From Granulicella sp. (GTDB lineage: Bacteria > Acidobacteriota > Terriglobia > Terriglobales > Acidobacteriaceae): a stretch of DNA of 64,000 nucleotides. This document shows positions 9,454 through 58,209 of this stretch, in pieces. The stretch's first letter is position 1, and each line of letters starts with the position of its first letter. Both the position numbers and the translations under genes were made by a program. The notes under the pieces were generated by a model, which saw only the letters and a program-made list of their open reading frames with translations, searched no databases and had not been told where the DNA came from. The stretch lies in the NCBI GenBank assembly GCA_003138795.1, contig PLHC01000062.1, forward strand, positions 31,410 through 95,409, given 5' to 3'.

Positions 9454-9727
9454 AAGGGAGGATCGGGTCTCGGCGCAGCCTTCTCTAATCGAGTGGTGCG
9501 GTGAATGCTGCCTTCGCCTTTTCGGAAGATGCGTCGCCAGGCCTGTGATCATTCTACAAACTCTTGCCCAGGCTTGCTCTCTACTTTAGACGCACGAGTC
9601 TAGAAAGTAGTTCACTAGCGGTTCAACGGGGCCCCACCGAGTTGCAATCGGCGGACAGGCTCCGCTGACCTTTACAATAGAAGTTTGGCCGCTCATACCG
9701 GAGTGTTTTCTTTGGCCGCACGGAACA

Positions 9728-13128: not shown

Positions 13129-13133
13129 GCAAC

Positions 13134-33053: not shown

Positions 33054-33917
33054 TCAACCATTTATAACTGGAGTCTCTGTTGGGTAGATGGTTGTGGTTG
33101 GCGAAGGGAGCCGGGCCATGGCCCGGCTCCCTTCGAGGGCAAGTTTGAACTCCTGAGGCGTGCGGTAGTCCAGCGAGCTATGGGGACGCTCGCAGTTGTA
33201 CTCCTCACGCCAGGCTGCCAGAGTACACCGGACGTCGTTCAGCGTGCGGAACCAGCTCGCGTTGAGGCACTCGTCGCGCAGCCTGCCGTGGAAGCTCTCG
33301 ACATGGCCGTTCTGCATCGGCCGGCCCGGCTGGATATGCACCAAACCGATCTTCCAGTCCTCCGACCATGCCAGCATACGTCGCGAGGTGAACTCCGGCC
33401 CGTTGTCCGAGCGCACATTCTCCGGCGGGCCACGCTCTCCGATCAGCCGCTCCAGCACTCGCGTTACACGACCACTGCCGATGCTGGTGTCGGCTTCCAG
33501 CGCCAGGCACTCGCGCGTATACGCATCGACCACGCTGAGGATGCGCACTATCCGTCCCGTCGCCAAGCCATCGACGATGAAGTCCATCGCCCACTCCTGA
33601 TTAGCTCGCGTCAGACGTTGCTCGATCGCACGATCCCGCACTAAGCGCTTGCGCCTCTTGCGTCGCACCATCAGGCCCTCCTCCACATACAGCCGGTAGA
33701 CACGCTTCACGTTCACCTCATGGCCACGACGGCTCAACAGCGCGTGCAGCCGACGATAGCCGTAGCGAGGCTTCTGTCGCGCCAGCTTCACCAACTCGTC
33801 TCGTAACTCCGCGTTGTGGTCCGGCCTCGGCTCATACCGGTAGCTCGACCGCTCCACGCCCAGCAGCTTGCAGGCCGTGCGTTCGCTCAGCCGGAACTCG
33901 CCGGACACGAACGCCAC
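33054..33917 (-). CDS. IS3-family transposase OrfB (DDE integrase core)
   Basis: rve-type core (WAMDFIVD..., DNGPEFTS..., HIQPGRPMQNGHVESFHGRLRDECL). Probably made as an OrfAB fusion by a -1 frameshift. Confidence 0.9.
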   Translation of the reverse strand: MAFVSGEFRLSERTACKLLGVERSSYRYEPRPDHNAELRDELVKLARQKPRYGYRRLHALLSRRGHEVNVKRVYRLYVEEGLMVRRKRRKRLVRDRAIEQRLTRANQEWAMDFIVDGLATGRIVRILSVVDAYTRECLALEADTSIGSGRVTRVLERLIGERGPPENVRSDNGPEFTSRRMLAWSEDWKIGLVHIQPGRPMQNGHVESFHGRLRDECLNASWFRTLNDVRCTLAAWREEYNCERPHSSLDYRTPQEFKLALEGSRAMARLPSPTTTIYPTETPVING

Positions 33918-33925
33918 ATCGCCTC

Positions 33926-34207
33926 TTAGACCGGCAAGCTCCAGCCGTTTTTTCGGATCACGGCCTTCAGTGCTTCGCCGTGCAGGATCAGCTCCGCCAC
34001 CAGCAGCTTCAGACGCCGGTTCTCATCCTCCATCGCCTTCAGCCGCTGCGCATCGCTCACGTCCATCCCGCCGAACTTCTGCTTCCAGCCATAGAACGTC
34101 GCCGCACTGATCCCATGCTCACGGCACAGGTCCGCCGTCTTTATTCCAGCCTCATGCTGCTTCAAAAGCCCGATGATCTGCTCTTCCGTATACCGGCTCT
34201 TCTTCAT
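33926..34207 (-). CDS. IS3-family transposase OrfA (HTH)
   Basis: MKKSRYTEEQIIGLLKQHEAGIKTADLCREHGISAATFYGWKQKFGGMDVSDAQRLKAMEDENRRLK is the typical IS3/IS407-group OrfA with a leucine zipper. Confidence 0.9.
   Translation of the reverse strand: MKKSRYTEEQIIGLLKQHEAGIKTADLCREHGISAATFYGWKQKFGGMDVSDAQRLKAMEDENRRLKLLVAELILHGEALKAVIRKNGWSLPV
33947..33953 (-). other. putative -1 programmed ribosomal frameshift heptamer A AAA AAC
   Basis: On the minus strand, ...GTG ATC CGA AAA AAC GGC... A -1 slip reads KKRLELAGLRGDVAFVSGEFRLSERTACKLLGVER, which joins OrfA to OrfB in frame. Confidence 0.7.
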
Positions 34208-34831: not shown

Positions 34832-35023
34832 CTAGTAGGCGGTCAGGGAAGCAGTGATGGCGGTGAAGATCGCGCTGATCTCGGTGCCCAGACTCTTCAT
34901 GGCGACGGTCGCCCCCAATGCAATCAGAGCAACAACCAGAGCGTACTCGACCAGATCCTGGCCTTCTTCCTGCGACAATAGGCTCTGAAACTTGGTATAC
35001 AGTCCCTGCAAAGTGTTTTTCAT
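34832..35023 (-). CDS. flp: Flp/Fap family type IVb pilin (copy 2, 63 aa)
   Basis: MKNTLQGLYTKFQSLLSQEEG/QDLVEYALVVALIALGATVAMKSL...; GGGAGA lies 6 nt upstream of ATG 35023. The last 54 nt are identical to copy 1. Confidence 0.88.
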   Translation of the reverse strand: MKNTLQGLYTKFQSLLSQEEGQDLVEYALVVALIALGATVAMKSLGTEISAIFTAITASLTAY

Positions 35024-35677: not shown

Positions 35678-36103
35678 TTATATGAAGAACTCAAGATTCA
35701 GACTGTCTCCGGGCCTTGTCTGCGTGTCGCGTATCGTGCCCGAGGCAAGCTCGATCACAGAATGCGCGGAGAGACATACCGACAGCCTCCGTGGAAGCAC
35801 ATCGCTGCGGACTTTTATTATTCGGTGACTGCGGTCCAGATAGACGAGGTCGATTGGGAATTGCATGCCGAAGGTGTGCACGGCTTCACAGGGGAGTATC
35901 CACAGACCTTCGCCAGGAGAAAGCCGCTCGCGCCCCAGCAGACCCTTTCTACGCTTTGCGCCTTTGTCGGCGACTTCCACGTTGCTGGCGAGCAGCGTCT
36001 GGCGAGTGAGGTTCGAGACCCGCAGGCGAGGGTCGGGTCTTGCCCCGCGGTGTTGAGTGAGGCGGTCCAGTAGGTCTAACAATGTCCGGCGCAGCAGATT
36101 CAT
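35678..36103 (-). CDS. DUF192 domain protein (141 aa)
   Basis: VADKGAKRRKGLLGRERLSPGEGLWILPCEAVHTFGMQFPIDLVYLDRSHRIIKV follows the DUF192/COG1430 pattern (A.T...R..GLM.R..L....G..F.....H.FWM..PLD..FLD). ORF trimmed to ATG 36103, downstream of the cpaC stop. Confidence 0.7.
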   Translation of the reverse strand: MNLLRRTLLDLLDRLTQHRGARPDPRLRVSNLTRQTLLASNVEVADKGAKRRKGLLGRERLSPGEGLWILPCEAVHTFGMQFPIDLVYLDRSHRIIKVRSDVLPRRLSVCLSAHSVIELASGTIRDTQTRPGDSLNLEFFI

Positions 36104-36242: not shown

Positions 36243-37805
36243 CTACTGGGGCGCGGCTGGAGCGGGGCTGGCAGCCGCCCCTCCCCCGTTGGCACCAAAA
36301 GAGCCTGAAGACGAGCTATCGATCAACAGCGGCTTCTCCGGTTGCATAGCCTTAATTAATTGCTCCACGGGCATCGTTGCCGGTACGGGGGCTGGAAGCG
36401 CGCCAGCCGGTTTCATGTCCGGAGTATTCATGGGTATACCGGAGTTGGGCGGCAGGAACTTTGCCGGATATTTCAAATGAGGCAGGGGTGCGCCTACCGG
36501 TATTGGTTTTACGATTTCCGGTGTCACAATCACTATGAGTTCAGTATTTGTCTTATTTTTCGAGATTGACTGGAAAAACTTGCCAAGAATCGGGATGTCC
36601 CCTAGAAAAGGTATCTTCTGGAAGGTCTCGGTATCCCGATTGTCAAGCAGACCACCGATGGCAAAACTTTGGCCATCAGCCAGTTCGACCTCAGTGTTCA
36701 CTTTCCGGACATCAATGGCGGGGACATCAAATCCTGAGATCTCCACGGCATTAGTGAAGTCCAGCGAACTTACTTCGGGGGCAACCTGGAGGCGGATCGT
36801 TCCGCGGGGAGTAATGGTGGGAATGAAATTCAGGCGAATTCCATACTCTTTAAATTCAATCGTAACTGACGTACCTGTGCCCGAGGATCCCTGAACAACT
36901 GGATACGGATATTCTCCTCCAGCGAGGAAGCTGCCTTCTTTGCCGTTTTGCGCGAGGATGTTGGGCTCAGCAAGAACCTGCACCAGGCCCTTAACCTGTA
37001 ATGCTTGAATAGTTGCGCCCAGATTCAGGCCCGGAAAGAACGCAAGAAGGTTCAGGTCATTCGACAAAGTCGCCACTGCCGTCCCCGAACTGGGAAGGCT
37101 AAGCGTTGGCGGAGAAAACTGTCCCGTTGAAACCCCAGCCACAGTATTTCCCAGACCGGTACTGAAGAGGTTTATGCCGAGCTGATTGCTCAGGCTACGG
37201 TCGACGCTGGCAAAGATGACCTTGAGGAGAATCTGTGGTTCGGCGGGAGGAACTTGGACATCAAGTAGATTGACAACCTTACCCGCCGCTACGGCAGAGA
37301 CAATCTGCACGGCCCGACTCGAGCTGTTGATATCCTTGACTGTGCCGCGGAGGAAGATAGCGCCGCCCTCGGAGCTAACGGTAAGGGTTTGGCCTGGAAG
37401 ATCCTGTCTGAGCTCGCGACGTATCGCCTCCAGGTGGTCATTGTCCGTATAGATGCTAGAGTGAACCGTGACCGCAACAAACTCTCGGACGCCGCCATGT
37501 TCCCAAATGATCAGACTGGTTTCCCCAGGCGCTTTTCCGCTCACCAGAATCTCGGAGGGGCTAATCGCGGTGGCTACGGCGATATCGCCGATGCCGACGG
37601 CGACCCGCTGCACGGGTAAGGCACAGTCGAGCACCACGGATTCGCCCACGACAACCGAGAGTGCCTTCACCGTATCCAGCCTGCGGGAGGGGGCAGATTG
37701 GGAGACAGGCCTTGAAGTCTGAGCAAGCAAAGACGAATCAGCGTAGACACAAAATAATAATGCGCCGTAAAAGGCCCTGACCATAGAAGCTTTGGTTCTT
37801 ATCAT
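36243..37805 (-). CDS. cpaC: Flp pilus secretin CpaC/RcpA
   Basis: 520 aa with a signal peptide, an N-terminal pilus-formation/BON-like region and a C-terminal secretin domain (LAEPNILAQNGKEGSFLAGGEYPYPV..., IPFLGDIPILGKFF). Confidence 0.9.
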   Translation of the reverse strand: MIRTKASMVRAFYGALLFCVYADSSLLAQTSRPVSQSAPSRRLDTVKALSVVVGESVVLDCALPVQRVAVGIGDIAVATAISPSEILVSGKAPGETSLIIWEHGGVREFVAVTVHSSIYTDNDHLEAIRRELRQDLPGQTLTVSSEGGAIFLRGTVKDINSSSRAVQIVSAVAAGKVVNLLDVQVPPAEPQILLKVIFASVDRSLSNQLGINLFSTGLGNTVAGVSTGQFSPPTLSLPSSGTAVATLSNDLNLLAFFPGLNLGATIQALQVKGLVQVLAEPNILAQNGKEGSFLAGGEYPYPVVQGSSGTGTSVTIEFKEYGIRLNFIPTITPRGTIRLQVAPEVSSLDFTNAVEISGFDVPAIDVRKVNTEVELADGQSFAIGGLLDNRDTETFQKIPFLGDIPILGKFFQSISKNKTNTELIVIVTPEIVKPIPVGAPLPHLKYPAKFLPPNSGIPMNTPDMKPAGALPAPVPATMPVEQLIKAMQPEKPLLIDSSSSGSFGANGGGAAASPAPAAPQ

Positions 37806-38653
37806 TCTCCCCCGGGAGCAGTAAATTTTTGTTCGCTTCGCTGTAGTCCGTTGAACACTTCAACCGAATAGAACCGCGGTTCTGTTTTAGTCGCGATTTT
37901 GGAGCCGCCGACAGTAATCAATTTTGGCGCGACTGGTTTGTTATTTGCAAAGAGAGTAGACATGGCGGTTCCCGGAATCTGAACAATCTTTGTATCCAGC
38001 GGGTTGCGCAGCACGAGCTGGAGATGCACCTGATTGCTGGCCAGGCTCAGAACCTCTGCCTGCTCCGGCGATACAAGCAGGTTAACTACCTGAACCTGCT
38101 GCGGCTTGCCTTCCGCGTCCTTTTGAATATCCGTGCCTGCTGAGAGCACCTCTATATTCTGAAGGAGTGTCTTCACTTGAGGCCCGTCACTCGAATTCGG
38201 TTGGCCGGGAGGGTTGCCCGACATCAGCACATCCACACGCATTCCGGGAGTGACGAATCCAGCCACGCCTACGACCTCATCGACCTTGACTGCACAGGCT
38301 CTCATCCCCTGACGAATGGTGGCTGCCAATCCGCCACCGGAGCCGACAGCCGCCAGACGACTATCCACAATGGGTTCGCCTTGATAGAGGTCGGAAATCA
38401 CTCCACGGCCTATCGCGTTCTCAGACTTCAGAATGGCCCCCTTGGGAAGGGGTCCTGCAATCTCGATGGTTGTCAGATTACCAGCATTGAGAATGGTCCC
38501 GAGCTTGATATCCCCAGCAGCCGCAACCACGCGAGTGGTGGCTGCCTGGTGTGTCACCCCCAGGCGGTTGCCAACTACCCGAAAGACGAGATAGGCGCAT
38601 CCGGCGGCAACGACGAAAGCAGAGAGAAGGATGGTCAATACTCTTTGGTTCAT
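37802..38653 (-). CDS. cpaB: Flp pilus assembly protein CpaB/RcpC
   Basis: N-terminal TM, SAF-like domain (VVAAAGDIKLGTILNAGNLT) and RcpC C-terminal region. ATGA overlap with cpaC. Confidence 0.85.
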   Translation of the reverse strand: MNQRVLTILLSAFVVAAGCAYLVFRVVGNRLGVTHQAATTRVVAAAGDIKLGTILNAGNLTTIEIAGPLPKGAILKSENAIGRGVISDLYQGEPIVDSRLAAVGSGGGLAATIRQGMRACAVKVDEVVGVAGFVTPGMRVDVLMSGNPPGQPNSSDGPQVKTLLQNIEVLSAGTDIQKDAEGKPQQVQVVNLLVSPEQAEVLSLASNQVHLQLVLRNPLDTKIVQIPGTAMSTLFANNKPVAPKLITVGGSKIATKTEPRFYSVEVFNGLQRSEQKFTAPGGE

Positions 38654-39310: not shown

Positions 39311-39781
39311 CTAGTCTTGAATTGTCTCTATCGAGGTGCTGGAGAGAGGAATGGAGGTGGAGAAGAATGGAATATTCAGTTTGAATGAATAACTTACATT
39401 CACCTCAACCTGGCATCCCTGACTGTATTGCGCGCATGTGCTGCCGGCCGCCGTTGTAGTCAGCCAGGTAACCGTAATGTTGCTTGCCGTCAAGTTGAGG
39501 CCGGGGTGCGCCAGGCCCAATTCGTAGTTTTGCACGTCGACCGCCGTAGCCTTGCAGCCATAGCTGCTCACCGACGCGCAGGGACTTGTCCAATTCGAAC
39601 CGCGCACCATGGCATATCGCGTCCCTTGCTGAGCGGCGATCGCGACAAAATTGCCTGCATATATTACCAGACAGAACTCAATGATACCGAAGATCAACGT
39701 GAAGAAGATCGTGGCAGCAAGGGCGAATTCAACTGATTCGGCGCCGTCTTCGTCACAAACGAGGCTCTTCACTCTTCGCAT
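39311..39781 (-). CDS. TadE/TadF-like pseudopilin
   Basis: N-terminal DEDGAESVEFALAATIFFTLIFGIIEF is the TadE-like motif (G-x-x-x-x-E-F followed by a hydrophobic helix). Confidence 0.8.
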   Translation of the reverse strand: MRRVKSLVCDEDGAESVEFALAATIFFTLIFGIIEFCLVIYAGNFVAIAAQQGTRYAMVRGSNWTSPCASVSSYGCKATAVDVQNYELGLAHPGLNLTASNITVTWLTTTAAGSTCAQYSQGCQVEVNVSYSFKLNIPFFSTSIPLSSTSIETIQD

Positions 39782-39940
39782 CTTGATCCTTCAACAAACT
39801 TTCAACAGCGTATATCTATCCCAAAGTGCGTGCAACTAGTACTGTGACCGTGTAATTCTGTACCTTCCCATGTCCCAAAATCGGGACCTGGGGCACTCAA
39901 TTCATGCTTGTCAACATGTCCTAATCACGCGGTTACGGCA

Positions 39941-40414
39941 CTAGTTGCCGCGTACGGTGGCCGTGGCAGACAAAGTTATGGAGCTTGGGATACCCGGCCA
40001 ATGCACCATCGTCGTATAGACTGACGAGGTTGTGACTTGGACCCTATGTACAACATTGCCGCCCCGAGTAGCGTTTACCACGCAGACCGGAGTAGTCGAG
40101 CAGTTTCCATAGTACGAAGTGCCATCGCTGCATTCACAGCCCCATGTTGGCGCCGTCACAGTCAGGTTAGACAAATTCGGAGCGCTTTGCCGGGCCGCCG
40201 CGGTGATGCCAGCCGTAAGGGTGGGGTTTATCGATCCGTATTCCGCTCCAGCATGTGCGGCGTTCTCCACCTCGAGGTCCACATAATACGCGCGGCCAAG
40301 GTCGACGGCCCCAATTACGAGCAGCAATAAAATCGGAGTCACAAGGGCCAACTCGACGAGGGCTGCGCCATGATTGGCTTTGCAGAGGACGCAGAGACGC
40401 GCTAGAAATTTCAT
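39941..40414 (-). CDS. TadE/TadF-like pseudopilin
   Basis: N-terminal NHGAALVELALVTPILLLLVIGAVDLGRAYY matches the TadE-like motif. Confidence 0.8.
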   Translation of the reverse strand: MKFLARLCVLCKANHGAALVELALVTPILLLLVIGAVDLGRAYYVDLEVENAAHAGAEYGSINPTLTAGITAAARQSAPNLSNLTVTAPTWGCECSDGTSYYGNCSTTPVCVVNATRGGNVVHRVQVTTSSVYTTMVHWPGIPSSITLSATATVRGN

Positions 40415-40417
40415 CGA

Positions 40418-41734
40418 CTACTCCGCCAGTGCTATGGTTGCTGAACCGTTGGCCGCACCGCTGCCGCCAGGGCAAACTCCACCCGGCATTGAGGAGCAAC
40501 TAAGGGATATGGCTGAGTTCAGCATAAGTGATTGCGACTCAACCATACCGTAGGCGACTGCAGTGCTGCCGCCATTCAGCGTAAGCTGCGCGTCGGGAAG
40601 GTAGATTGCCCCCTTCCAACTCGAACTGGAGGACGAATCCAGGATCATCGAACTGGAATCGGTTGTAGCCTGCCAGATCAACATCCCAGCGGTAGTACCT
40701 GTCGCAGGTGCGGACAGAGTCATAGTTGAGGCGCTATTCATAGTTAGCGACCCATTCGCAAAATAGATGGTCACGTTAGATCCAGTGAGGTTCACGCCAC
40801 CAACGACCATGCTGCCGCCAAAGTAGTACAAGCCAGAGGCAAGGGTTACGGTGTAGCCGCTCGAGTTGAAATTGAGGCCGCTCGAATAGTAACCAGGCTG
40901 CAACGTTGTGGCGCCCCCGACTGGATTACAGCAGGTGGATGAAGTGGCCGGTTGGGTGGGCTTAGTAATGGTGCCGGCTGTAATTTCGGCGGCGATGGGG
41001 TCAGGTACCACCGCAGCGCCTGTTGTGGGCGTGGGAGTATAAGATCCACCGTTATCCGTGACGGTTCCGTGAACAGTATAGGAGCCGACGTTCACTGTGG
41101 CGCCGCTGTCCTCCATCACTGCGGGTGTCCCATTCGAGTCGACGTTGACGCCGCAAGTGGAACCCGAGGCATCCGTTATGCTGGCACCCGAGTTAAGCGT
41201 CAAGGTTTGGCCGGAAGTCCCCGTGACATTCAAGCAGGGGCTGGCCGCGCTTGATTTACCGGCTTCCGCCCGGGCAGAGATTTGGACTGTGCTTACGCCG
41301 AAGATTTTCGCAAAGAAAGTTGGTTTCTGCTCAGTAACCAAAGCTTCCACGTAATTTTTATTCAGGTTATTCGGATCGCTGGCGCCCAGCGCGCAGGGGC
41401 CGTTGTTGATCGTCAGGAGCAGGCCCGTCCCGGACGCCGCCGCGCATTGCAGGAATAGGGTAGGCGCTGGGCTCCCGCCCTCCGTCAACGCCGTAGTCGC
41501 GGCGGTTTGTATCACGGCGCAGTTGGGCGTCCCGCATGCGCTGGCCTCCAGCGCTCCCGCCATTGCTGCGGCATCGGCAAACGTCTGCAACTGGCGCTGT
41601 GTGCAGAAGAGATTGCCTATATCGATAACAATTGCCAAAAATGAAAGCAGCATTGTCACACTCAGCGCTGCCAGTACGAGTATATTCCCGCGCTCGTCTC
41701 TCAGCAATCCTCTCAGCATTCTCATCGTTTCCAT
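40418..41734 (-). CDS. TadG-like pilus assembly protein (Thr/Ser/Gly-rich beta-rich C-terminal region)
   Basis: N-terminal LRDERGNILVLAALSVTMLLSFLAIVIDIGNLFCTQRQLQTFADAAAMAGA is the TadG-type (putative Flp pilus-assembly TadE/G-like) motif. The start is uncertain (41734, 41725, 41719 or 41815). Confidence 0.75.
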   Translation of the reverse strand: METMRMLRGLLRDERGNILVLAALSVTMLLSFLAIVIDIGNLFCTQRQLQTFADAAAMAGALEASACGTPNCAVIQTAATTALTEGGSPAPTLFLQCAAASGTGLLLTINNGPCALGASDPNNLNKNYVEALVTEQKPTFFAKIFGVSTVQISARAEAGKSSAASPCLNVTGTSGQTLTLNSGASITDASGSTCGVNVDSNGTPAVMEDSGATVNVGSYTVHGTVTDNGGSYTPTPTTGAAVVPDPIAAEITAGTITKPTQPATSSTCCNPVGGATTLQPGYYSSGLNFNSSGYTVTLASGLYYFGGSMVVGGVNLTGSNVTIYFANGSLTMNSASTMTLSAPATGTTAGMLIWQATTDSSSMILDSSSSSSWKGAIYLPDAQLTLNGGSTAVAYGMVESQSLMLNSAISLSCSSMPGGVCPGGSGAANGSATIALAE

Positions 41735-42222
41735 CCTCACCCGATTGACCGTGTCCTCACAGCTCAGCACTCCAGGCCTTGCCCGGAGATCCAATAGGCT
41801 ATCCGCAGCACCCATCCGGCATGAGTCTTACCACCTGAGCTTACACAAGGCCATTTAGAAACCGCTGAGAATTTCGCGAACCGATTCTCAGGAGTCACCC
41901 AAATGGTGAGTATTGGCAATCTCACCATCGGCCATTTGCAAAACATTTTCAATTTGCATCCGGGTGGGAGGGAGTGGCCTATCCAGTCGGTGAGCCAGCT
42001 TCAGATCGCTGCCTTTAAAGCCCAAGAAATGAGATTGTCGGAGAGTTTGGTGTCTGAACGCCTCCAGAGACACCTGTTTGGCCTCCGAGTGCTGCTTTGC
42101 TTAACCCGGTTTTCCGTACCACTGCGCCTCAAACCCCGGAATCGCCCCAGGTGGCTCGCATACAGACCGCCACTCAGCAGCTTCTACAGAACTTTACGGA
42201 CTCAATCTAGATTATCCTCGCC

Positions 42223-43065
42223 CTATTCGCCGCTGTAAGAGTCTATCCAGAGCTCCGTATCTACCTTGTCATCCCCAAGGATTGCCATCAACGTGGATTG
42301 CTGCTGTGCCTCTGGCTGGACAAACACCAGGCCGATTCCATCCGTCTCCCAGCGGGTCACTCTCAACTGCACTGTGATCGAGTGTTTAGAGTTTTCATCC
42401 ACCTCGTCCGTCCTTTGCAGTGTCAACATGACCATCGTTCCTAAGGGCCAATATTTCTCAGTGAGCAGGTACAATCCGGTCGAACTGATATCCCTGATGC
42501 CGTTCACCACCAGAGTGGCCCCGCTCCAGTCATAGGCAACCAGCCGGGGCCACCGCTGCCGTCTGGCCCTCCGGTGATCCACGGTCAACCGTTTGGGAGA
42601 CCAGTGTTTTAGTGAATGCGTGCTCTCCATCTCTGGCACAAAGCCACTCATTTCACCCGGCGGCTCAAGGTTTGAGGTACTCCTCAGCCGGAACTCCATC
42701 TCCTCGGCCACACAGATCAACAGTTGATTGCCGGGCTTCGTCTGTGACGAATAAATTGTGTGGGCCGGCAGTGATAGCACACTTGCTGCATCAGTTCTCA
42801 ATCGGACAATACGCAATGTTGGAAAAGACTCGACGACGTGAATAACTCGATGATCATTGTCCAGATAAACCAGATCACGAGAAGAGAACACTCCAAATAC
42901 ATGATTGCTTTTACGACAAAACGCCCAGTAGTCCCCGTCGAACCGGAGTGTGCGCTTTCCAATTATTCCCTTGATGCGCGTCAGTGGGCTATCGGCAATA
43001 GTAACTCCTAAACTGAGAAAGCATTCGCATGTCTGGTTATACACACAGTATTTTTGTTTTTCCAT
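42223..43065 (-). CDS. DUF192-PilZ fusion protein (280 aa)
   Basis: The N-terminal half is paralogous to the DUF192 protein at 35678..36103 (V.N.T...AD...R.KG..G...H.FG...DLVYLD..HR.I.V...QT.PG). The C-terminal half carries PilZ motifs RRARR (RxxxR) and DISSTG (DxSxxG), which follows RRARR after a 22-residue gap. Confidence 0.75.
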   Translation of the reverse strand: MEKQKYCVYNQTCECFLSLGVTIADSPLTRIKGIIGKRTLRFDGDYWAFCRKSNHVFGVFSSRDLVYLDNDHRVIHVVESFPTLRIVRLRTDAASVLSLPAHTIYSSQTKPGNQLLICVAEEMEFRLRSTSNLEPPGEMSGFVPEMESTHSLKHWSPKRLTVDHRRARRQRWPRLVAYDWSGATLVVNGIRDISSTGLYLLTEKYWPLGTMVMLTLQRTDEVDENSKHSITVQLRVTRWETDGIGLVFVQPEAQQQSTLMAILGDDKVDTELWIDSYSGE

Positions 43066-43393
43066 TCGTCTTCTCCCCTAGGCAAGAACCCGACAACCGC
43101 GTGTTATCGTAAAGTTCTACTCTCCGATCAAATTTTCAAGTCTGTTCGCTTCATGTATTTTCTATCTCTGAGGCCAGCCGACTACGAATAAACTCCGCTT
43201 CGTCTGGAGTAAAGGAAGCAACTGTACCAACCAGTGAGCTAGGCCAGACCACACTTCATCTGCGCCTGCCCGCCTGACGATATCTGGGAGACACACGCCG
43301 TAAAAACGGCGGGTGTCTCGGCCAGCAGAACCAAGGTTGGCAAGCGAGCTCGGTAGTTTCCTGGCCTCACCAATCCTTGGCATTGCACGCATG

Positions 43394-43489
43394 CTATTTC
43401 ACGCGTGTGCGACGACGCTGAATCATAATGCCTAGTACGACAACGAACAGTACGCCGGCGATAATGCGGACAATCAAGTCATTTGCCAT
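43394..43489 (-). CDS. possible 31-aa small membrane protein
   Basis: Own translation: MANDLIVRIIAGVLFVVVLGIMIQRRRTRVK*. GGAGA lies 6 nt upstream of the ATG, 17 nt downstream of the tadC stop. It has one TM helix and a basic tail. It is below the ORF-track size cutoff. Confidence 0.35.
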   Translation of the reverse strand: MANDLIVRIIAGVLFVVVLGIMIQRRRTRVK

Positions 43490-43506
43490 ATGAAATCTCC
43501 TTTCTT

Positions 43507-44418
43507 TCAATGTGTGGTGAAATTTTTGAACGACTCAGACATGAGTATGAACGCAGGACCCAGTGTTACAAGAAAAAGGCAGGGGAAGATAAACAATACA
43601 AGTGGGAAGATCAATTTTATGGTGGTCTTCGCCGCCTGTTCCTCCACTGCCTGAACGCGCTGGGTTCTGAGTGTCTCGGAATGAGTGCGTAAAATCTTGG
43701 CGACGCTCGTTCCAAACTTTTCCGATTGCACCACCATGGAAACGAGGGTGCGCACAGTATCCACGTCGGTGCGTTCCGCCAGGTGTCTCCAGGCATCGGA
43801 ACGAGGGCGCCCGGCGCGTTGCTCCAGCACGACGACACCGAATTCATCGCTGATAGCTGGCTGGGCGCTGCTTAATTCCTGGGCCGCGCGCGCCATTGCT
43901 TGGTCTAGGCCCAGTCCCGCCTCGATGCAGATAATTAGCAGATCGAGCATGTCTGGCAAACCGAGCCGAATACGTGTTTGCCGGGCAGCAATCTTCCTCC
44001 CCATCCAGAAATCCGGCGCCAGATATCCGACGCCCAGAGCTGCGGCATAGACAATGAAAGGACTTTCGCTCGCGAGACCGCTGCACAGAACCGCGATACA
44101 GAGCGCAACCGGAACTAATACCTTCATGCCGTAGAAGACTTTGACGGCGGAGTCCGTGCGATAGCCAGCACGGATAAGACGCTGTTGCGCAACGGAGACT
44201 TCCGCCTGTGTCTTCGGCACGACGCGCTCGAATTGCTCCACCATGACGCCCAGCGAAGAACCAGTCTTTTGCAGGGTATCGGACAGGCTTCCCCGTTTCG
44301 TGCGCTGCGTGATCGCACGGGAGATCTGCTTGAGCATAGCTTCGCGATAGAACAGGAGTAGTCCGCCGCTCGCGATCAACAGAAATATGACACCAAATGC
44401 AAAGATCGCAAATCCCAT
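43507..44418 (-). CDS. tadC: Flp pilus assembly inner-membrane protein TadC (T2SS F family)
   Basis: 303 aa with an N-terminal TM, a cytoplasmic T2SSF domain (GLPDMLDLLIICIEAGLGLDQAM) and C-terminal TMs. Confidence 0.85.
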   Translation of the reverse strand: MGFAIFAFGVIFLLIASGGLLLFYREAMLKQISRAITQRTKRGSLSDTLQKTGSSLGVMVEQFERVVPKTQAEVSVAQQRLIRAGYRTDSAVKVFYGMKVLVPVALCIAVLCSGLASESPFIVYAAALGVGYLAPDFWMGRKIAARQTRIRLGLPDMLDLLIICIEAGLGLDQAMARAAQELSSAQPAISDEFGVVVLEQRAGRPRSDAWRHLAERTDVDTVRTLVSMVVQSEKFGTSVAKILRTHSETLRTQRVQAVEEQAAKTTIKLIFPLVLFIFPCLFLVTLGPAFILMSESFKNFTTH

Positions 44419-44427
44419 AGGTCTCCT

Positions 44428-45399
44428 TCAAACTTCCAGGTGAACGATCTTTTGAATGACTAAAGTACCAACTACCAGCATGCACCCAGCTCCACACAGT
44501 AGCTTGATGCCAATCGCGGTCTTCCACAAAAGGCTCATTGTATCGGGGTTGACGATATATAGGCCGATTCCGAGCGCCACGGGAAGAATCGTGAGTATCC
44601 ACCCTGTGAGGCGTCCTTGAGCGGTGTGGACCATGACCTGCCGCTTCAGGCGGAATCGTTGTCGGGTCACATAAGCAGTCTTTTCGAGGACCTCCGCAAG
44701 GTTTCCTCCGCTCTCCCTTTGAATCAGAATCGCCGTCACGGCGATTCTCAGATCCTGTAGTGGAACCCTGGTGATCATGTTTTCCAGGGCTGTGCGCAGT
44801 TCAAGGCCGAAGTTCTGCTCGTCGGAGCAAATGCGGAATTCGCAACCGATGGGGTCGGCGCACTCGCGAGTCACCAACCCTAATGCGGCGCTGAAACTGT
44901 GTCCGACTCGGAGGGCGCTTACCATCAGATCAAGAGCATCCGGCAACCCCTCTTCAAACTTACCGAAGCGTCGACTGCGCTGGAAGCGCACATATCCATA
45001 GGGCAACAATCCCAGGATTAACCCGCCCAGCAAACCACAGAGGAAGGACCCGGTTTGCAGGTCGATCAGATATGCCGGGAGCGCGAAGCAGGCGGCGCAC
45101 ATGAGAAGCAGCGCACCCACGGTCCATTTGAGATTGGCCTGATTCAGCAAGCTCTGCAGCTTCGGCACCAGATCGATCTTCAAAAGTCTGTGATTGATCC
45201 AGGGTATGGCGCTGAGCAGTTCACTCTTGCGGAAATCGACAATCGGAGCGCGCGGTTTCGGGCTGTCGGAAGCCAGAGCCGAATCGAACGTGGCGAGCAC
45301 TTGCTTGTTGTGCCCAGCGGCCGCGGACCCGCTCGCGACAAGCAGCAAAGCTACAACGGTGAAGACTCCGACGAACACCAGGACTATGAGCAATACCAT
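44428..45399 (-). CDS. tadB: Flp pilus assembly inner-membrane protein TadB (T2SS F family)
   Basis: 323 aa with a T2SSF domain (GLPDALDLMVSALRVGHSFSAAL). Paired with tadC, as in tad loci. Confidence 0.85.
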   Translation of the reverse strand: MVLLIVLVFVGVFTVVALLLVASGSAAAGHNKQVLATFDSALASDSPKPRAPIVDFRKSELLSAIPWINHRLLKIDLVPKLQSLLNQANLKWTVGALLLMCAACFALPAYLIDLQTGSFLCGLLGGLILGLLPYGYVRFQRSRRFGKFEEGLPDALDLMVSALRVGHSFSAALGLVTRECADPIGCEFRICSDEQNFGLELRTALENMITRVPLQDLRIAVTAILIQRESGGNLAEVLEKTAYVTRQRFRLKRQVMVHTAQGRLTGWILTILPVALGIGLYIVNPDTMSLLWKTAIGIKLLCGAGCMLVVGTLVIQKIVHLEV

Positions 45400-45420: not shown

Positions 45421-46701
45421 TCAATTAACTTCCAACGAGGTTTCGAACACGTTCTGCGGGAGGAAGATACCCGCGAGTTGGAGGCGTTCGAGGAACCTGG
45501 GACGGATGTGGCTCGGCGCGAATACGCCAACTACCTTGCCGTCGGGTCCGATCCCCTTCTTATTAAATGTGAAGATCTCCTGCATGCTGATGATGCTTTC
45601 TTCCATGCCGGTGATCTCGGTGATGCTCACGACCTTGCGGCTGCCGTCGCTCATACGAGAGATTTGGACGACCAAGCTGAGAGCTGAGGCGATCTGCTGA
45701 CGAACTGCCTTTTCTGTCAGATTCAAACTGCTCATCGCGACCATCGATTCGAGTCTCGCGAGGGCATCGCGCGGTGTGTTTGCATGAATCGTAGCCATCG
45801 AACCTTCGTGACCGGTATTCATGGCCTGAAGCATGTCGAACGCTTCTTCTCCACGTACTTCACCTAAAATAATGCGATCTGGGCGCATTCGGAGGCAGTT
45901 GATAAGCAGTTGACGCTGGCGGATCGCCCCTTGCCCTTCGATGTTGGGCGGGCGGGTTTCGAGGCGCACGATATTTTCCTGCGCGAGCTGCAGTTCGGCC
46001 GCGTCTTCAATGGTGATGACACGTTCATTTTGCGGAATATTCCGTGACAGGATGTTCAGTAACGTAGTTTTGCCGGCGCCGGTGCCACCGGAAATCAAAA
46101 TGCTGAGCCGCGCGCGCGCTGCGGCTGATAGCACTTCCATCATTTCCACCGAAAGACTCTTCAGCTCTACCAGTTGGTTAGCAGCTATAGGGCCTGTACC
46201 AAAGCGACGGATAGACAAGGAAGGACCATCAAGCGCCAGCGGTGGAATGATGGCATTGACACGTGAACCATCGGGCAGGCGAGCATCGACCATCGGCGAG
46301 GCCTCATCGACTCTGCGGCCGACGCGCGACACAATGCGGTCGATGATCTGCAACAGGTGACGATCATCGCGAAATACTGTATCGACCCTCTGCAGCCTTC
46401 CGGCACGCTCAACAAACACTTTATCTTTGCCATTTACTAGAATGTCTGAAATTGTAGGGTCCTTCAGCAATGGCTCCAGCGGACCAAGGCCAAAGACTTC
46501 GTCGAGCAAGTCGGCCTGAATCTGTTCCTGCTCGTCAAAACTCAGCGGTACTCCCTGGTTGTTGATAATCTCGCTAACGATGCCAGCCACCACTTGGCGT
46601 GCGTCGCTGGAGTTGACACGCGACAACTTCTCCAAATCCAGCTTCGAGATCAGGGTCCGATGTACTTCGGATTTGTACTTCTCCAGATTCAGCACTTCCA
46701 C
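45421..46701 (-). CDS. cpaF: Flp pilus assembly ATPase CpaF/TadA
   Basis: T2SS E-type ATPase with Walker [15 protein letters not shown], Asp box, Walker B ([12 protein letters not shown]) and His box ([11 protein letters not shown]). Confidence 0.93.
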
Positions 46702-46733: not shown

Positions 46734-47951
46734 CTAAAATAATCCAAACCGCTTCTTTTTTTCAGGATGTGCCGATAGGCCACATGCCGTTCTAGCCATC
46801 TGTAAGATCACCCGTGAGATGGCCGAGTCATTCAGCGCAAGCGGGGTGGCTGTGCTCTGCGTCCCCCGGGCAGTGGCGGAATCGTTGGGAATTCTCCACT
46901 GCGCCGGCCTGGTGAGCGCCTTCGTAATCTGTCCTTCATCAACGCCCAGCGAGGAAGGTATATATCGGTTGACAACGATCTCGAGTTTGGTAGGATCTGC
47001 CGTAAAGAATTCTGAAATTAGGCGATTTGAGTTACGCAGTTCGGGAATACCCACCTGGGTGACCAGGTAGAACATGGCATCTTCTTTGAAGAGAGACGTA
47101 CCGGCTATATCGAGTCTTGATCCCGAATCGACCACCACAAAGTCGAAGTCCTGCCGCGCGACGGCCAGCAGTTTATCAATGGCGTCCTTAGAAGCCTGGA
47201 CGTTAGTGAATTTCCCTGGAGCTGTGAGCACAGATAACCCTGAGCTATATTTGACGACCAACATGGAGAGAAAAGTCGAATCCAGTCGGTTGAAATTCTG
47301 AAGAGCATCGACTGTCGAGTATTGAGCGCTGATCCCAAGACTAAGCGCAATGTCACCGAGTGGCAGATCGAGATCGATCAACAGCGTTTTCTTACCGGAT
47401 TCCCGGGCAAGCAATATCGCAAAGTTGCAGGCGAGAGTCGTGACCCCGGAGCCGCCCTTAGCGCCAAAAAATACAAACAGCCTGCCACCCGTATTTTTAG
47501 TGGCTAGAACTGCTGGACGGCGGGCCGAGGCCCGAACCAGAGCCTCGTCTATGGCTCCAGAGGAGAAGGGTTGCAGAAATTCCCGAGCGCCCGCCCGCAT
47601 GCAACGGATCATTAATTCAGGATCGCCCTGCGCCGAATAGACCATCACCGTTGCAGAGCTTTTGCCGCATATGCTCTCCACCAGATCGAGAGCGTATTCC
47701 GGATTAGTGTCCAGGTCGATGATGACGACGTCGTAATTCTGCTCAATCAACCTTGGCACATCGTCGAGTTCGGGATAGGAAGAAAACTCCCGGGTGAGGC
47801 CAGACAGCGGTCCGGCAAGGGCAGCGGCTACCGCCTTGCGCCGCTGCGTATCCGGACCAATCAGCGCAATGGATAAGGCATTCGAGCCCATCGCATCGAG
47901 ATTCTGAATACTTGATATCACGGAATCGATACTCCCTGCTGCTTGCAACAT
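46734..47951 (-). CDS. cpaE: CpaE/TadZ pilus-localisation ATPase (receiver-like N-domain plus MinD/ParA-type ATPase)
   Basis: Atypical receiver-like N-terminus ([13 protein letters not shown]..., [25 protein letters not shown]) and deviant Walker [15 protein letters not shown]. Confidence 0.85.
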
Positions 47952-48015: not shown

Positions 48016-48537
48016 TCAACGAGAAAAGAAGGAAAGCAGTGTTCCAATCGCGATGGCCGGAGCGTATGGCATTTTGCGCGTGAGTGGATTGGCTAGAACC
48101 AACTCCGGATGAGGACGCATTCCCCGCTGCTTCAAACCGAAGAGGAGTTCGCCCGACCCCTTAAACAAGTCTCCAAGAAATCCACCGCACAGACCCCAGC
48201 ACAGAGCCATAACACCCCCGGCAAGACCGGTGATAACCAGTGCAAGTAGCAATTGAGCCGGGCCGATCCAAGCACCTATAGCCGCGCACAACTTCACGTC
48301 ACCCATGCCCATGCCGCCCATCCAGAAGAGAATTCCAAAAAACAGGGTGCCAAGTCCCAGACCGCCAAGACTTTGGCCGATCCCATGCCAGCCATGAAGC
48401 CAGCCGGAGACTGCAACCCCCGCGAGCATAAATGGGAGCACTAGCCAATTCGGGATACGGCGGCTGCGCAGATCCGTGAAGATCGCCACAGCGAGAACAA
48501 TGAGAGTTGGCCACCAGGCGATCGAATGCATACCCAT
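48016..48537 (-). CDS. cpaA: prepilin peptidase CpaA/TadV (A24 family, no methyltransferase domain)
   Basis: 173 aa, polytopic. FTDLRSRRIPNWLV and GMGMGDVKL carry the two catalytic Asp regions of A24 peptidases. Confidence 0.85.
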   Translation of the reverse strand: MGMHSIAWWPTLIVLAVAIFTDLRSRRIPNWLVLPFMLAGVAVSGWLHGWHGIGQSLGGLGLGTLFFGILFWMGGMGMGDVKLCAAIGAWIGPAQLLLALVITGLAGGVMALCWGLCGGFLGDLFKGSGELLFGLKQRGMRPHPELVLANPLTRKMPYAPAIAIGTLLSFFSR

Positions 48538-48767: not shown

Positions 48768-48783
48768 AGCAATCCTGGGGCCA
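48768..48783 (-). promoter_or_regulatory. sigma-54-type -24/-12 promoter candidate at the head of the cpaA-cpaE-cpaF-tadBC unit
   Basis: Minus strand TGGCCCCAGGATTGCT compared with consensus TGGCAC-N5-TTGCW (GG-N10-GC exact, TTGCT). The -12 GC lies 47 nt upstream of ATG 48723. Confidence 0.6.
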
Positions 48784-49982: not shown

Positions 49983-51404
49983 ATGATCCGCGTCGGTCTC
50001 TATTCGCAGGATTGCACGTTGCAGCCGCTTCTTGCTTCTGCATTGGGTAAGGAATTCCAGTTTTTCTTCGTCTCAGATGAGACCGGAATCAATCGCCTGC
50101 TCTCTACCGGAAATTGCAATGTCATGATTTTCGATCTGAACTCAAATCATGCTTCATTGCAGGAGGGTATTGAATGCGCCCGGCGCATGACCACATCACA
50201 GGTTTCCAGCGTGATCATGGCTGATGATCGCCTTCGGTCGACCGCTGCCGAACTTGTTCGGCAAGGCGCCTACGGCTACTGCCATAGACCACCCTCCATT
50301 CGCGATCTAAGGATTATGCTGCGCCGGGCGAACGAGAACTCTTCGCTCAAGCAGCCACTCGACGCCACACCGCAACTGCCGGAGAGCACAAGCGATTGCG
50401 ACCGGATGGTCGGGGCCAGCCCCCAGATGCAGCACGTTTATTATCTGGTACGTTCTGTAGCGAATATTAATGCACCCGTGCTTGTGACCGGAGAAAGTGG
50501 CACGGGTAAAGAACTAGTCGCCCGCGCCATCCACAGCCTAGGTGCGCGCTCCAATTTTCCCTTTGTCGCTATTGCCTGTGGAGCAATCCCTGAAACTCTG
50601 ATTGAGGCCGAGTTGTTCGGGCATGAAAAGGGCGCGTTCACAGGCACAGTTGGGTCACGCGAAGGTTACTTCGAGCAGGCAGGTGATGGCTCGCTTTTCC
50701 TCGATGAGATCGGAGATCTAAGCCTATATACGCAGGTCAAACTTCTGCGCGTTCTGCAGCAGCGCGAATTCAGCCGACTGGGCAGTAACAGGCTTATCCC
50801 ATTGCGGGCGCGCGTGATTTTCGCCACGCATAAGAACCTAGCTGAAATGGTGGCCCAGGGGACATTCCGTCAGGATCTTTATTACCGCATCAACGTCATG
50901 GGGGTTGAAGTACCGCCCCTCCAAGAGCATTCCGAAGATATTCCTCAGATTGCCACGCATTTCCTGCGGCACTATTCGCAGATGTATCAAAAGCCGATGC
51001 AGGATATTGAGCCAGATGCTCTGGCCATGCTCCAAAGATATCCCTGGCCCGGAAATGTACGCGAACTGGAAAATGTGATTCAGAGGGCGATCATCCTCGC
51101 CCAGGGAGACATACTTCAGGTGGAAGATTTGCCCCTGAATATACAGGACGAACTTATAGCCAGCATCGACGACGGCCTGCCTATAGGTTCTTTCGAACGA
51201 CAACTTCGCGACTATAAGATCAGACTGGCCGCAACAGCCATTCGGGAGAACAATGGGAACAAGACGCTGGCCGCCCGCAGTTTGTGCATTTCGCGGGCTT
51301 ATTTGCATCGGTTGATCCGACCTGAGGTAGACCCAACATTGACACTGGTGGCGAATTCAGAATTTGAGGAATCAGCCTTGGGCTGCGGGACATTCTCGGG
51401 GTGA
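49983..51404 (+). CDS. sigma-54-dependent transcriptional activator (receiver-like N-domain, AAA+ sigma-54 interaction domain, Fis-type HTH)
   Basis: Walker A VTGESGTGKELVARAIH, GAFTGT loop (EKGAFTGT), Walker B SLFLDEIGDL, ESELFGHE-type ELFGHE, and C-terminal HTH NKTLAARSLCISRAYLHRLI. Confidence 0.9.
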   Translation: MIRVGLYSQDCTLQPLLASALGKEFQFFFVSDETGINRLLSTGNCNVMIFDLNSNHASLQEGIECARRMTTSQVSSVIMADDRLRSTAAELVRQGAYGYCHRPPSIRDLRIMLRRANENSSLKQPLDATPQLPESTSDCDRMVGASPQMQHVYYLVRSVANINAPVLVTGESGTGKELVARAIHSLGARSNFPFVAIACGAIPETLIEAELFGHEKGAFTGTVGSREGYFEQAGDGSLFLDEIGDLSLYTQVKLLRVLQQREFSRLGSNRLIPLRARVIFATHKNLAEMVAQGTFRQDLYYRINVMGVEVPPLQEHSEDIPQIATHFLRHYSQMYQKPMQDIEPDALAMLQRYPWPGNVRELENVIQRAIILAQGDILQVEDLPLNIQDELIASIDDGLPIGSFERQLRDYKIRLAATAIRENNGNKTLAARSLCISRAYLHRLIRPEVDPTLTLVANSEFEESALGCGTFSG

Positions 51405-51467: not shown

Positions 51468-52892
51468 ATGACAAGGACGCGTCGGATTGGCCTGTTTTGG
51501 CTGTTGCTGTGCAGCGGGATATTCGTTGTATGGGGTTCTGTTGTAGAAAGCACCTCGCCTGCCGGGATGATCGACTTTAGGGCGGTTTACTACGGCACGC
51601 AATGCCTAATTCAACATAGAGATCCTTACAAAGAGGGCGAGTTTCTGCGTGTGTACCAGGCAGATGGAGGGCAATTCCCATCGGACCCCACGCTATCTCG
51701 TACGTTTCGCCGGGCTGTACCCGTGTGCATCAATCTACCGACCTCACTGTTTCTCATCGCTCCTTTTGCAATTTTGGCCTGGGGGCCGGCACACGTGCTG
51801 TGGATAATCCTGCTAGCCGGATGCCTCATCTTTGCCGCTTTCCTTATGTGGGACCTCGCGGAGAACTATGCGCCGGGAATTTCGCTCTTTTTGATTTGCA
51901 TCTTGCTTGCCAACAGCGAAGTCCTATTTTTAAGTGGCAATTTAGCTGGGATCGCCATAAGTCTCTGTGTGGTGGCCGTCTGGTGTTTCATTAAGGGACG
52001 GTTTGTACCGGCCGGCGTCCTATGCCTTGCTGTCAGCTTCGCATTGAAGCCCCACGACGCGGGCCTCGTCTGGCTCTATTTCCTGCTGGCGGGCGCGCCC
52101 CATCGGAAACGCGCACTGCAAACCCTCGTTGTGACTCTTGTCCTGTGTCTGCCGGCCATCCTGTGGGTCTCGCACGTCGCGCCGCATTGGACTCAGGAGT
52201 TGCACTCCAATCTTCTGTCGACCTCGGCGCATGGCGATATCAACGACCCTGGTCCCACTTCCATCTCTGGCCATACCGCCGACCTGGTAATAGACTTGCA
52301 AACTGTCATAAGCGTCTTCCGTGATGATCCGCGCATCTACAATCCGGTCAGCTATCTTGTATGCGGAGCACTCCTGCTCGTATGGTCGCTCAAAACTCTG
52401 AAGTCACGCATCTCGACGACGAGCGCCTGGCTGGCGCTCGCGGCAATCGTACCTCTTACCATGCTCGTGACCTATCATCGGCCGCATGATGCGAAACTCC
52501 TGCTGCTCACTGTTCCAGCCTGCGCAATGTTGTGGGCCGAGGGCGGCCTGATTGGGTGGACTGCACTCCTGGTGAATACAGCGGGGATTGTGTTTACTGG
52601 AGATATTCCGTTGGCAATTCTCTTCATTTACACGAAAAATCTGCACGCGGGCACAGCGGGGTTGCCGGGAAAGATGCTGACCGTTATGTTGACCCGTCCA
52701 TCCCCGCTCATCTTGCTGGCGATGGGAATTTTCTATCTCTGGGTATATGTGCGGCGGGCTCCCGCCCGAGCCACAACGACGGAGCATGAATGGCCGGAGG
52801 AGACGCCGATTGCATCCATGACCGCTTACGGAACCTCCTGCATAAGTCCGCACTCGGCGCCCTGTTTGGATGAAGTGGTCGGTGGAGGATAG
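51468..52892 (+). CDS. polytopic membrane protein, GT-C-type glycosyltransferase-like (GT87/DUF2029-like)
   Basis: 474 aa with about 11-12 predicted TM helices by eye and a short acidic first loop (DPYKEGEF). The family assignment is tentative. Confidence 0.45.
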   Translation: MTRTRRIGLFWLLLCSGIFVVWGSVVESTSPAGMIDFRAVYYGTQCLIQHRDPYKEGEFLRVYQADGGQFPSDPTLSRTFRRAVPVCINLPTSLFLIAPFAILAWGPAHVLWIILLAGCLIFAAFLMWDLAENYAPGISLFLICILLANSEVLFLSGNLAGIAISLCVVAVWCFIKGRFVPAGVLCLAVSFALKPHDAGLVWLYFLLAGAPHRKRALQTLVVTLVLCLPAILWVSHVAPHWTQELHSNLLSTSAHGDINDPGPTSISGHTADLVIDLQTVISVFRDDPRIYNPVSYLVCGALLLVWSLKTLKSRISTTSAWLALAAIVPLTMLVTYHRPHDAKLLLLTVPACAMLWAEGGLIGWTALLVNTAGIVFTGDIPLAILFIYTKNLHAGTAGLPGKMLTVMLTRPSPLILLAMGIFYLWVYVRRAPARATTTEHEWPEETPIASMTAYGTSCISPHSAPCLDEVVGGG

Positions 52893-58132: not shown

Positions 58133-58209
58133 TGGTAGCGTTACCGGGGCTCGAACCCGGACTCTTCGCCTTGAGAGGGCGACGTGTTAACCAGTTACAC
58201 CATAACGCC
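58133..58209 (-). tRNA. tRNA-Glu (anticodon CUC), CCA encoded
   Basis: Hand-folded cloverleaf. Acceptor GGCGTTA/TAACGCT (G1-U72 wobble), D-arm GTGT-AACTGGTTA-ACAC, anticodon arm TCGCC-CTCTCAA-GGCGA (anticodon CTC), variable AGAGT, T-arm CCGGG-TTCGAGC-CCCGG, discriminator A plus CCA; 77 nt. Confidence 0.85.

Follow-up and report, generated by a model that had tools for sequence, protein, structure and literature searches.

How the second messenger cyclic di-GMP (c-di-GMP) might act on a Tad pilus is the question raised by a locus of Granulicella sp. (Acidobacteriaceae), which lies within the 64,000-nucleotide (nt) stretch of DNA analyzed here (contig PLHC01000062.1, positions 31,410 to 95,409; "the window" hereafter). 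In Caulobacter, c-di-GMP controls the number of Tad pili, first raising and then lowering it, as well as their retraction; according to the authors, neither its receptor nor its mode of action had been established (PMC6581867). The Tad machine has an outer ring in the cytoplasm that was described as unassigned (PMC12637624). The tad gene cluster of the window contains a gene for a 280-amino acid (aa) protein composed of an N-terminal DUF192 domain, a linker, and a C-terminal PilZ domain ("the fusion"; Table 1). The reading favored here, to which we would give even chances, is that this protein is a cytoplasmic c-di-GMP receptor, through whose DUF192 domain the messenger would act on the Tad (type IVc) machine.

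The initial annotation had divided the open reading frame (ORF) into a DUF192 half and a PilZ half, and both were detected by hidden Markov models, by profile–profile comparison, and by fold. The Pfam model for PilZ (PF07238) matched residues 179–262 with 30.3 bits (gathering threshold 22.5), whereas that for DUF192 (PF02643) matched residues 21–115 with 25.7 bits, 1.3 bits short of its threshold of 27. Thus, the profile searches proposed at the outset succeeded for PilZ and for the stand-alone DUF192 protein encoded in the same locus (69.8 bits), but the DUF192 half of the fusion was detected by hhalign, which aligned the families of the fusion and of the stand-alone protein with 99.4% probability (E 1.5e-21 over 116 columns). 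Direct comparison by BLASTP gave 36% identity over 109 aa (E 5e-16), which bears out the claimed paralogy of the N-terminal half with the 141-aa DUF192 protein. Relatives of the fusion do pass the DUF192 cut-off (P0254 with 37.6 bits; best E-value in a 41-sequence family alignment, 1e-10). In a collection of 5.8 billion proteins, 560 homologues of the fusion (E ≤ 1e-3) and 2413 of the stand-alone protein were found. The best 120 fusion homologues were all full length and 51–100% identical, the names seen among them being Terracidiphilus and "Acidobacteria bacterium AB60"; overall, full-length homologues of 37–82% identity occur in more than 100 species. The fusion has no counterpart among the NCBIfam models. 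Signal peptides and transmembrane segments are absent from both the fusion and the stand-alone protein, which, for the fusion, fits a receptor for a cytoplasmic nucleotide.

An AlphaFold2 model of the fusion, built on the 41-sequence alignment, reached a mean predicted local distance difference test score (pLDDT) of 73 and a predicted TM-score (pTM) of 0.69. Confident blocks were found in DUF192 (pLDDT 84–94) and in PilZ (79–92), separated by a disordered stretch of the linker (residues 134–154; pLDDT <50) and followed by a disordered C-terminal tail. The PilZ half was modeled as a six-stranded β-barrel with strands at residues 174–248 (pLDDT 79–92). By sequence alone, this half matched solved PilZ structures only weakly (E 0.03 to 0.9), which made a fold search necessary. 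When the model was compared with the Protein Data Bank (PDB) using Foldseek, 3PJY and 3M7A, the two solved structures of DUF192 proteins, ranked first (probability 1.0 and E 4e-5 to 1e-4, with TM-scores of 0.54–0.61 when normalised to the target). PilZ structures matched with a probability of 0.97–1.0, namely 8u0i (PA0012 with c-di-GMP), 4i86, and the PilZ domains of BcsA and CeSA, the E-values for 8u0i, BcsA, and 4i86 being only 0.02–0.07.

Both motifs diagnostic of c-di-GMP binding could be read in the translation exactly as the initial annotation had given them: H164-R165-R166-A167-R168-R169 (containing RxxxR) and, after a gap of 22 residues, D192-I-S194-S-T-G197 (DxSxxG). The 41-sequence alignment shows no variation at D192, S194, or G197 and at least 90% conservation of the RxxxR arginines. 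The arrangement of RxxxR, a gap of ∼22 residues, and D/NxSxxG was kept in 115 of 120 close relatives and in 119 of 120 proteins from a second subfamily, whose linker is longer; none of 120 stand-alone DUF192 proteins contained it. Purifying selection acts on the motif pair. Its expected mapping to the PilZ binding site was also recovered, because DxSxxG aligned with that of c-di-GMP-bound PA0012 ("rDiSatGlY" versus "RDLSDTGVY" in a profile search of PDB sequences; 8u0i) and because the Pfam match in relatives of the fusion begins at PilZ model position 1–2 and, hence, covers RxxxR. In the predicted structure, the RxxxR segment is of low confidence (block values of 47 and 51 for residues 151–170), as is expected for ligand-free PilZ domains. 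Binding of c-di-GMP by the fusion is predicted to be likely.

The gene for the fusion is part of a complete Tad/Flp locus extending from 34499 to 48537, all on the minus strand, which encodes the ATPase, two T2SSF platform proteins, TadZ, an A24 peptidase, CpaB, the secretin, TadE/G proteins, and Flp (Table 1; an identical locus on contig PLOW01000107.1, assembly GCA_003159275.1, was used for gene calls). The observation from which this analysis started, a DUF192–PilZ protein within such a locus, is confirmed, and so is the presence of two DUF192 copies, the stand-alone one being located downstream of cpaC. The fusion gene had been placed between tadC and tadG; these flanks are correct, except that an ORF of 31 aa sits between tadC and the fusion.

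It had further been proposed to survey whether DUF192 genes co-occur with tad loci. One genome per species, as defined by GTDB, was scanned; 107 species had the fusion gene, and 80 loci were kept, with neighbors assigned by tblastn using the Tad proteins of the window and counts limited to loci with enough flanking sequence. The kept loci were all of the Acidobacteriaceae type (Terracidiphilus, Granulicella, Occallatibacter savannae AB23, Alloacidobacterium, and AB60); one bin was labeled Alphaproteobacteria, with the same gene order and coordinates near-identical to those of an Acidobacteriaceae bin. The survey answered in favor of the co-occurrence: tadC was found immediately upstream of the fusion in 75 of 77 loci, cpaF and tadB upstream of it in 69 of 71, and a stand-alone DUF192 gene directly after cpaC in 58 of 62. 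This synteny persisted down to 37% identity of the fusion, and the second subfamily (∼320–355 aa) occupied the same position in the same gene order in other Terracidiphilus lineages. Two variant loci (L017 and L034, ∼8100..10800) consisted of tadZ, a micro-ORF, and the fusion, lacking both the upstream genes cpaF, tadB, and tadC and the downstream genes cpaB and cpaC. Altogether, the linkage of this form of the fusion to Tad genes is very strong. None of the outcomes that the initial annotation had named as refuting its interpretation came about, and that interpretation is supported as a hypothesis.

The link is not confined to the fusion. When 72,556 plasmids were searched by tblastn, the stand-alone DUF192 protein matched seven records and, together with a Moraxella DUF192 query, a total of twelve different plasmids; all five of these that were opened showed a pilus context. 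On a Moraxella bovis plasmid, the gene order is cpaB, secretin, ATPase, tadB, tadC, DUF192, and tadE. On linear plasmids of Streptomyces, DUF192 comes last, after SAF, an unnamed gene, cpaF, tadB, tadC, a small ORF (probably flp), two tadE genes, tadG, and a gene for a LysM protein of 1,100 aa. On an Alkaliphilus plasmid, DUF192 starts 4 nt after the prepilin peptidase gene. The proteins concerned are 107–140 aa long and, like those of the window, leaderless. A canonical DUF192 sequence served as the control query (the 3PJY fragment, named "hypothetical signal peptide protein" by its depositors); it matched 262 plasmids, 187 of them conjugative, and the three contexts sampled were replication or partition backbones with repA, korB/parB, or toxin–antitoxin genes, and no pilus locus. 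The notion that canonical plasmid DUF192 genes belong to type IV secretion loci, with a link to VirB11-type ATPases, was discarded, as the neighbors in these three contexts were repA, korB, or parB.

An all-against-all matrix of bit scores, drawn from a small sample, separated two clades. The leaderless clade comprises both DUF192 domains of the window and the Moraxella, Streptomyces, and Alkaliphilus proteins (mutual scores of 30–64 bits; 140 for two close Streptomyces proteins), and the canonical clade comprises 3PJY, 3M7A, and the proteins of IncN, pCT14, and PromA plasmids (44–105 bits); scores across clades were 0–37 bits. Hydrophobic, signal-peptide-like N termini were seen for the pCT14 and PromA proteins, not clearly for that of IncN. 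Canonical DUF192 (UPF0127, COG1430) shares fold and family with the window proteins, but its examined members, the less clear IncN protein aside, have signal-peptide-like N termini and plasmid sites next to repA or korB, whereas the window proteins fall into a separate, leaderless clade. Small as the sample is, the comparison argues that the DUF192 module itself, beyond the fusion, is tied to Tad-type machines and, judged from these sequences, the DUF192–Tad link is a property of a leaderless clade in several phyla, wider than the locus in the window.

Table 1. Coordinates of the Tad/Flp locus of the window, of the parts of the fusion, and of DUF192 genes in other loci (L numbers denote those loci, in their own coordinates).
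Feature	Position	Strand	Evidence
Prepilin peptidase (tadV/cpaA)	48016..48537	-	Pfam Peptidase_A24, 71.3 bits
tadZ/cpaE, ParA/MinD-like ATPase with receiver-like N terminus	46734..47951	-	Pfam AAA_31, CbiA, weak Response_reg
cpaF/tadA secretion ATPase	45421..46701	-	Pfam T2SSE, 206.7 bits
tadB, T2SSF platform protein	44428..45399	-	Pfam T2SSF, 58.3 bits
tadC, T2SSF platform protein	43507..44418	-	Pfam T2SSF, 65.4 bits
31-aa single-pass membrane micro-protein gene, between tadC and fusion	43394..43489	-	Sequence MANDLIVRIIAGVLFVVVLGIMIQRRRTRVK; aggaga ribosome-binding site
DUF192–linker–PilZ fusion gene, 280 aa, ATG start	42223..43065	-	ORF; Pfam; 560 homologues; AlphaFold2 model
DUF192 domain of fusion, residues 1–130, no signal peptide	42676..43065	-	BLASTP, hhalign, Foldseek; pLDDT mostly 73–94
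Disordered linker of fusion, residues ∼131–160, 30 aa	42586..42675	-	pLDDT <50 over 134–154; variable and gapped in 41-sequence alignment
PilZ domain of fusion, residues ∼161–262	42280..42585	-	Pfam PF07238; Foldseek to 8u0i and BcsA PilZ domain, probability 1.0; hmmsearch to 8u0i
RxxxR motif, R165–R169	42559..42573	-	Translation; at least 90% conserved
DxSxxG motif, D192–G197	42475..42492	-	22 residues after R169; D192, S194, G197 invariant
tadG-like gene	40418..41815	-	Pfam Tad, Tad_C, DUF7305
tadE-like pseudopilin	39941..40414	-	Pfam TadE, 52.4 bits
tadE/F-like pseudopilin	39311..39781	-	Pfam TadE, 43.5 bits
cpaB/rcpC	37802..38653	-	Pfam RcpC, 97.5 bits; SAF
cpaC/rcpA secretin	36243..37805	-	Pfam Secretin, 168.3 bits; T2SS-T3SS_pil_N; BON
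Stand-alone leaderless DUF192 paralogue, 141 aa, downstream of cpaC	35678..36103	-	Pfam DUF192, 69.8 bits
flp pilin gene 1, 63 aa (longest ORF reaches 35062)	34832..35023	-	G/QDLVEY processing motif; Flp_Fap Pfam match on identical locus
flp pilin gene 2, 63 aa	34499..34690	-	G/QDLVEY motif; gene call in locus L002
Long-linker DUF192–PilZ paralogues, 550–890 aa, outside tad loci	L093, L109, L117, L171, around 10001..13800		
Plasmid leaderless DUF192 genes (Moraxella bovis, Streptomyces, Alkaliphilus)	L086 8911..9234; L085 8863..9222; L091 9869..10291; L092 9869..10225; L084 8902..9228		
Canonical DUF192 plasmid genes	L173 6905..7258; L174 5614..6045; L175 6848..7324		

In the mechanism proposed here, the PilZ domain would bind c-di-GMP through R165xxxR169 and D192xSxxG197. 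The RxxxR motif, at the end of the flexible linker, would wrap the ligand as in other PilZ receptors, and this wrapping would shift the position of the PilZ barrel relative to the N-terminal domain. The DUF192 module would dock on a cytoplasmic face of the Tad machine, with the stand-alone DUF192 protein, TadZ, the motor CpaF, and the platform of TadB and TadC as conceivable sites; in this way, the c-di-GMP level may adjust how pili are assembled or retracted, in a direction that is equally conjectural. The co-conservation of the stand-alone paralogue suggests that the two DUF192 domains may form a heterodimer or may compete for one site. A role of the fusion in pilus biogenesis or regulation is probable, if somewhat less so than ligand binding; that both apply together is an evenly balanced proposition, and any specific target, such as CpaF or TadB/TadC, is doubtful.

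Several observations weigh against a pilus-specific receptor. The docking partner is one that we infer entirely. The DUF192 half of the fusion falls short of its Pfam threshold, as detailed above, and an E-value of 1e-3 or better was reached by only 26 of the 41 family members for PilZ and by 18 for DUF192. Gaps of ∼330 and ∼400 nt separate the fusion gene from its neighbors, which makes a transcript of its own possible. Most importantly, the family extends beyond tad loci. An exhaustive search of representatives returned 3,544 clusters with E ≤ 1e-3, of which 317 reached E ≤ 1e-30. When the top 149 representatives were scanned, 128 contained both domains, 109 of these with the same motif pair; their linkers range from 30 to ∼640 residues, are rich in P, S, A, and E, and appear disordered. 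Some family members have an additional C-terminal Abi_alpha or receiver domain. When metagenomes were scanned with the long-linker forms as seeds, the loci returned had no Tad gene within 10 kb. The conserved neighbors of these forms instead encode a class IV aminotransferase, subunits of a 2-oxoacid:ferredoxin oxidoreductase, an acetyl-CoA hydrolase, a BON protein, and an M50 peptidase; downstream, there is often a second fusion gene or an ORF for PilZ alone. The two long forms with a taxon name both belong to Acidobacteriaceae (Telmatobacter sp. DSM 110680 and Terracidiphilus), and one genome probably carries a tad-type copy together with a long-linker paralogue. As these paralogues lie beside housekeeping genes, the DUF192 domain need not be Tad-specific. 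Hence, DUF192–PilZ represents an effector family specific to this lineage; it comprises several paralogues, of which a single one is fixed in the tad locus. The initial annotation had suggested a "dedicated" component of the pilus machine, which is too strong for the family, given the unrelated neighborhoods of the long-linker forms.

The same findings could mean that Acidobacteriaceae have a family of general c-di-GMP effectors in which the DUF192 output acts away from the pilus, and that the fusion gene is placed in the tad locus only for co-expression with a surface-attachment programme. The metabolic, BON, and M50 genes next to the paralogues, their extra domains, and the probable presence of both types in one genome all speak for this explanation. 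We nevertheless deem it unlikely, because the position between tadC and tadE/tadG was kept in 75 of 77 species, along with a second DUF192 gene after cpaC, and because stand-alone DUF192 genes of the same clade occur in Tad loci of three other phyla without PilZ, which ties the DUF192 module itself to pili. Alternatively, DUF192 might act on the maturation or delivery of pilins, that is, on the prepilin peptidase or on leader peptides rather than on the motor, with PilZ gating this step. This would agree with DUF192 directly following the prepilin peptidase gene in Alkaliphilus, with its place after the pilin/pseudopilin block in Streptomyces, and with the stand-alone gene of the window lying between the secretin and flp genes. 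Set against that, the gene follows tadC both in Moraxella and in the case of the Acidobacteriaceae fusion, and DUF192 has no known catalytic or chaperone motif; we consider this option quite unlikely.

It is also conceivable that the PilZ domain is blind to the ligand and serves only as a protein–protein adaptor, like the type IVa proteins PA2960/XAC1133, which bridge FimX and PilB. PilZ adaptors that do not bind the ligand exist in type IV pili (PMC11656802; Guzzo et al, 2009, as cited in PMC6581867). The weakness of sequence-only matches to solved PilZ structures would be in line with this. The non-binding PilZ proteins known to us do not contain the RxxxR and DxSxxG motifs. In the fusion, however, both are present with canonical spacing of 22 residues and are conserved over hundreds of sequences, so that a ligand-blind domain appears very unlikely. 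Finally, the DUF192 score just below the cut-off might suggest that the ORF is no real gene, or that its domain resemblance arose by chance. In view of full-length homologues in more than 100 species, the hhalign result, and the fold match, the probability of this is practically negligible.

As a cytoplasmic c-di-GMP receptor of the Tad machine, the fusion would have several relatives in concept. The receptors YcgR, FlgZ, and MotI of the flagellar motor are also small and cytoplasmic, with an N-terminal target-binding domain, a C-terminal PilZ domain, and RxxxR at the junction. There, c-di-GMP is thought to reorient the two domains for engagement of the motor, and the same logic is proposed for the fusion. 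Its N terminus, however, is DUF192 and not PilZN/YcgR_N, and its neighbors are Tad and not flagellar genes; as no Pfam match to PilZN was obtained even at E ≤ 1, the fusion stands outside the YcgR family because it does not have that domain. Another precedent is provided by the PilZ proteins PA2960/XAC1133 of type IVa pili, which presumably do without the binding motifs, FimX being the ligand sensor. Together with FimX and PilB, they likewise tie a PilZ protein to the motor of a type IV filament and to c-di-GMP (PMC11656802; PMC6581867). In contrast to them, the fusion has intact motifs and an attached DUF192 domain, and the system is of type IVc (Tad) with a single bifunctional ATPase. Direct input of a second messenger into a type IV pilus machine, as proposed here, is also exemplified by ATPases of the MshE/PilB type (as cited in PMC6581867), but these carry the ligand site in their own N-terminal domain, whereas the candidate receptor of the window is a separate protein. 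The dispersed tad genes of Bdellovibrio bacteriovorus have a PilZ gene nearby, as is the case here; it is only mentioned among nearby regulatory genes, and a DUF192 fusion, a conserved position, or functional data were not reported in that preprint (2026; 10.64898/2026.07.08.737194). The initial annotation was not aware of a described role for DUF192, or for a DUF192–PilZ fusion, in Tad pili, and a full-text literature search likewise found none in pili or Tad, with most subscription journals outside its coverage.

The 31-aa ORF between tadC and the fusion encodes one transmembrane helix and a basic tail, which, by the positive-inside rule, would lie in the cytoplasm. It was conserved in 82 of 87 related loci, often in two to three tandem copies, and matched no known family, including those of NCBIfam; it may be an unrecognised micro-protein of the Tad locus. 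Scanning 41700..43600 for σ70 promoters and terminators gave matches at chance level. A gene for a σ54 activator (49983..51404, plus strand) is divergent from the tad operon, an arrangement that recurs in at least 19 of 80 related species loci, and it prompted a scan for σ54 promoters upstream of the fusion. Such a promoter was dismissed, as the GG-N10-GC pattern scored no better in 87 upstream regions than in their reverse complements. One -24/-12-like site with a single mismatch (TGGCCCCAGGATTGCT, 48768..48783, minus strand) is located ∼230 nt upstream of the prepilin peptidase gene; the window-wide count of this pattern equaled chance expectation. The idea that the long intergenic gaps hold a c-di-GMP riboswitch or another RNA element was rejected as well, because the only Rfam match in the window was a tRNA (58136..58209, minus strand). 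The activator gene is flanked by a GT87 glycosyltransferase gene (51468..52892, plus strand), and GT87 genes also stand beside the tad locus in other Terracidiphilus contigs. At the other end of the locus, directly after the flp genes and judged from the gene calls of the identical contig, an IS3-type insertion sequence (HTH_Tnp_1 and rve transposase ORFs; ∼33054..34200, minus strand) is followed by a CHAD-domain gene.

The novelty would lie in the output domain and in the host machine, both new for PilZ receptors of type IV filaments; the fusion itself is confined to one bacterial family. Tentatively, the proposal may be carried further: leaderless DUF192 could be an unrecognised cytoplasmic component of Tad/type IVc machines in Acidobacteriota, Pseudomonadota, and Actinomycetota, and Bacillota would have a copy linked to pili; in Acidobacteriaceae, a duplicate would have captured PilZ and become the first machine-encoded c-di-GMP receptor of Tad, directly switching the bifunctional CpaF between assembly and retraction. 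Cultured carriers of the fusion exist (Occallatibacter savannae AB23 and strain AB60), as do simpler loci on Moraxella and Streptomyces plasmids, which combine stand-alone DUF192 with Tad genes, so that experiments are feasible. The locus would also place one clade of DUF192, a widespread domain of which two crystal structures exist, in a functional context for the first time. For Tad pili, a PilZ protein fixed in the tad operon of a whole bacterial family is a concrete candidate for the missing link to c-di-GMP.

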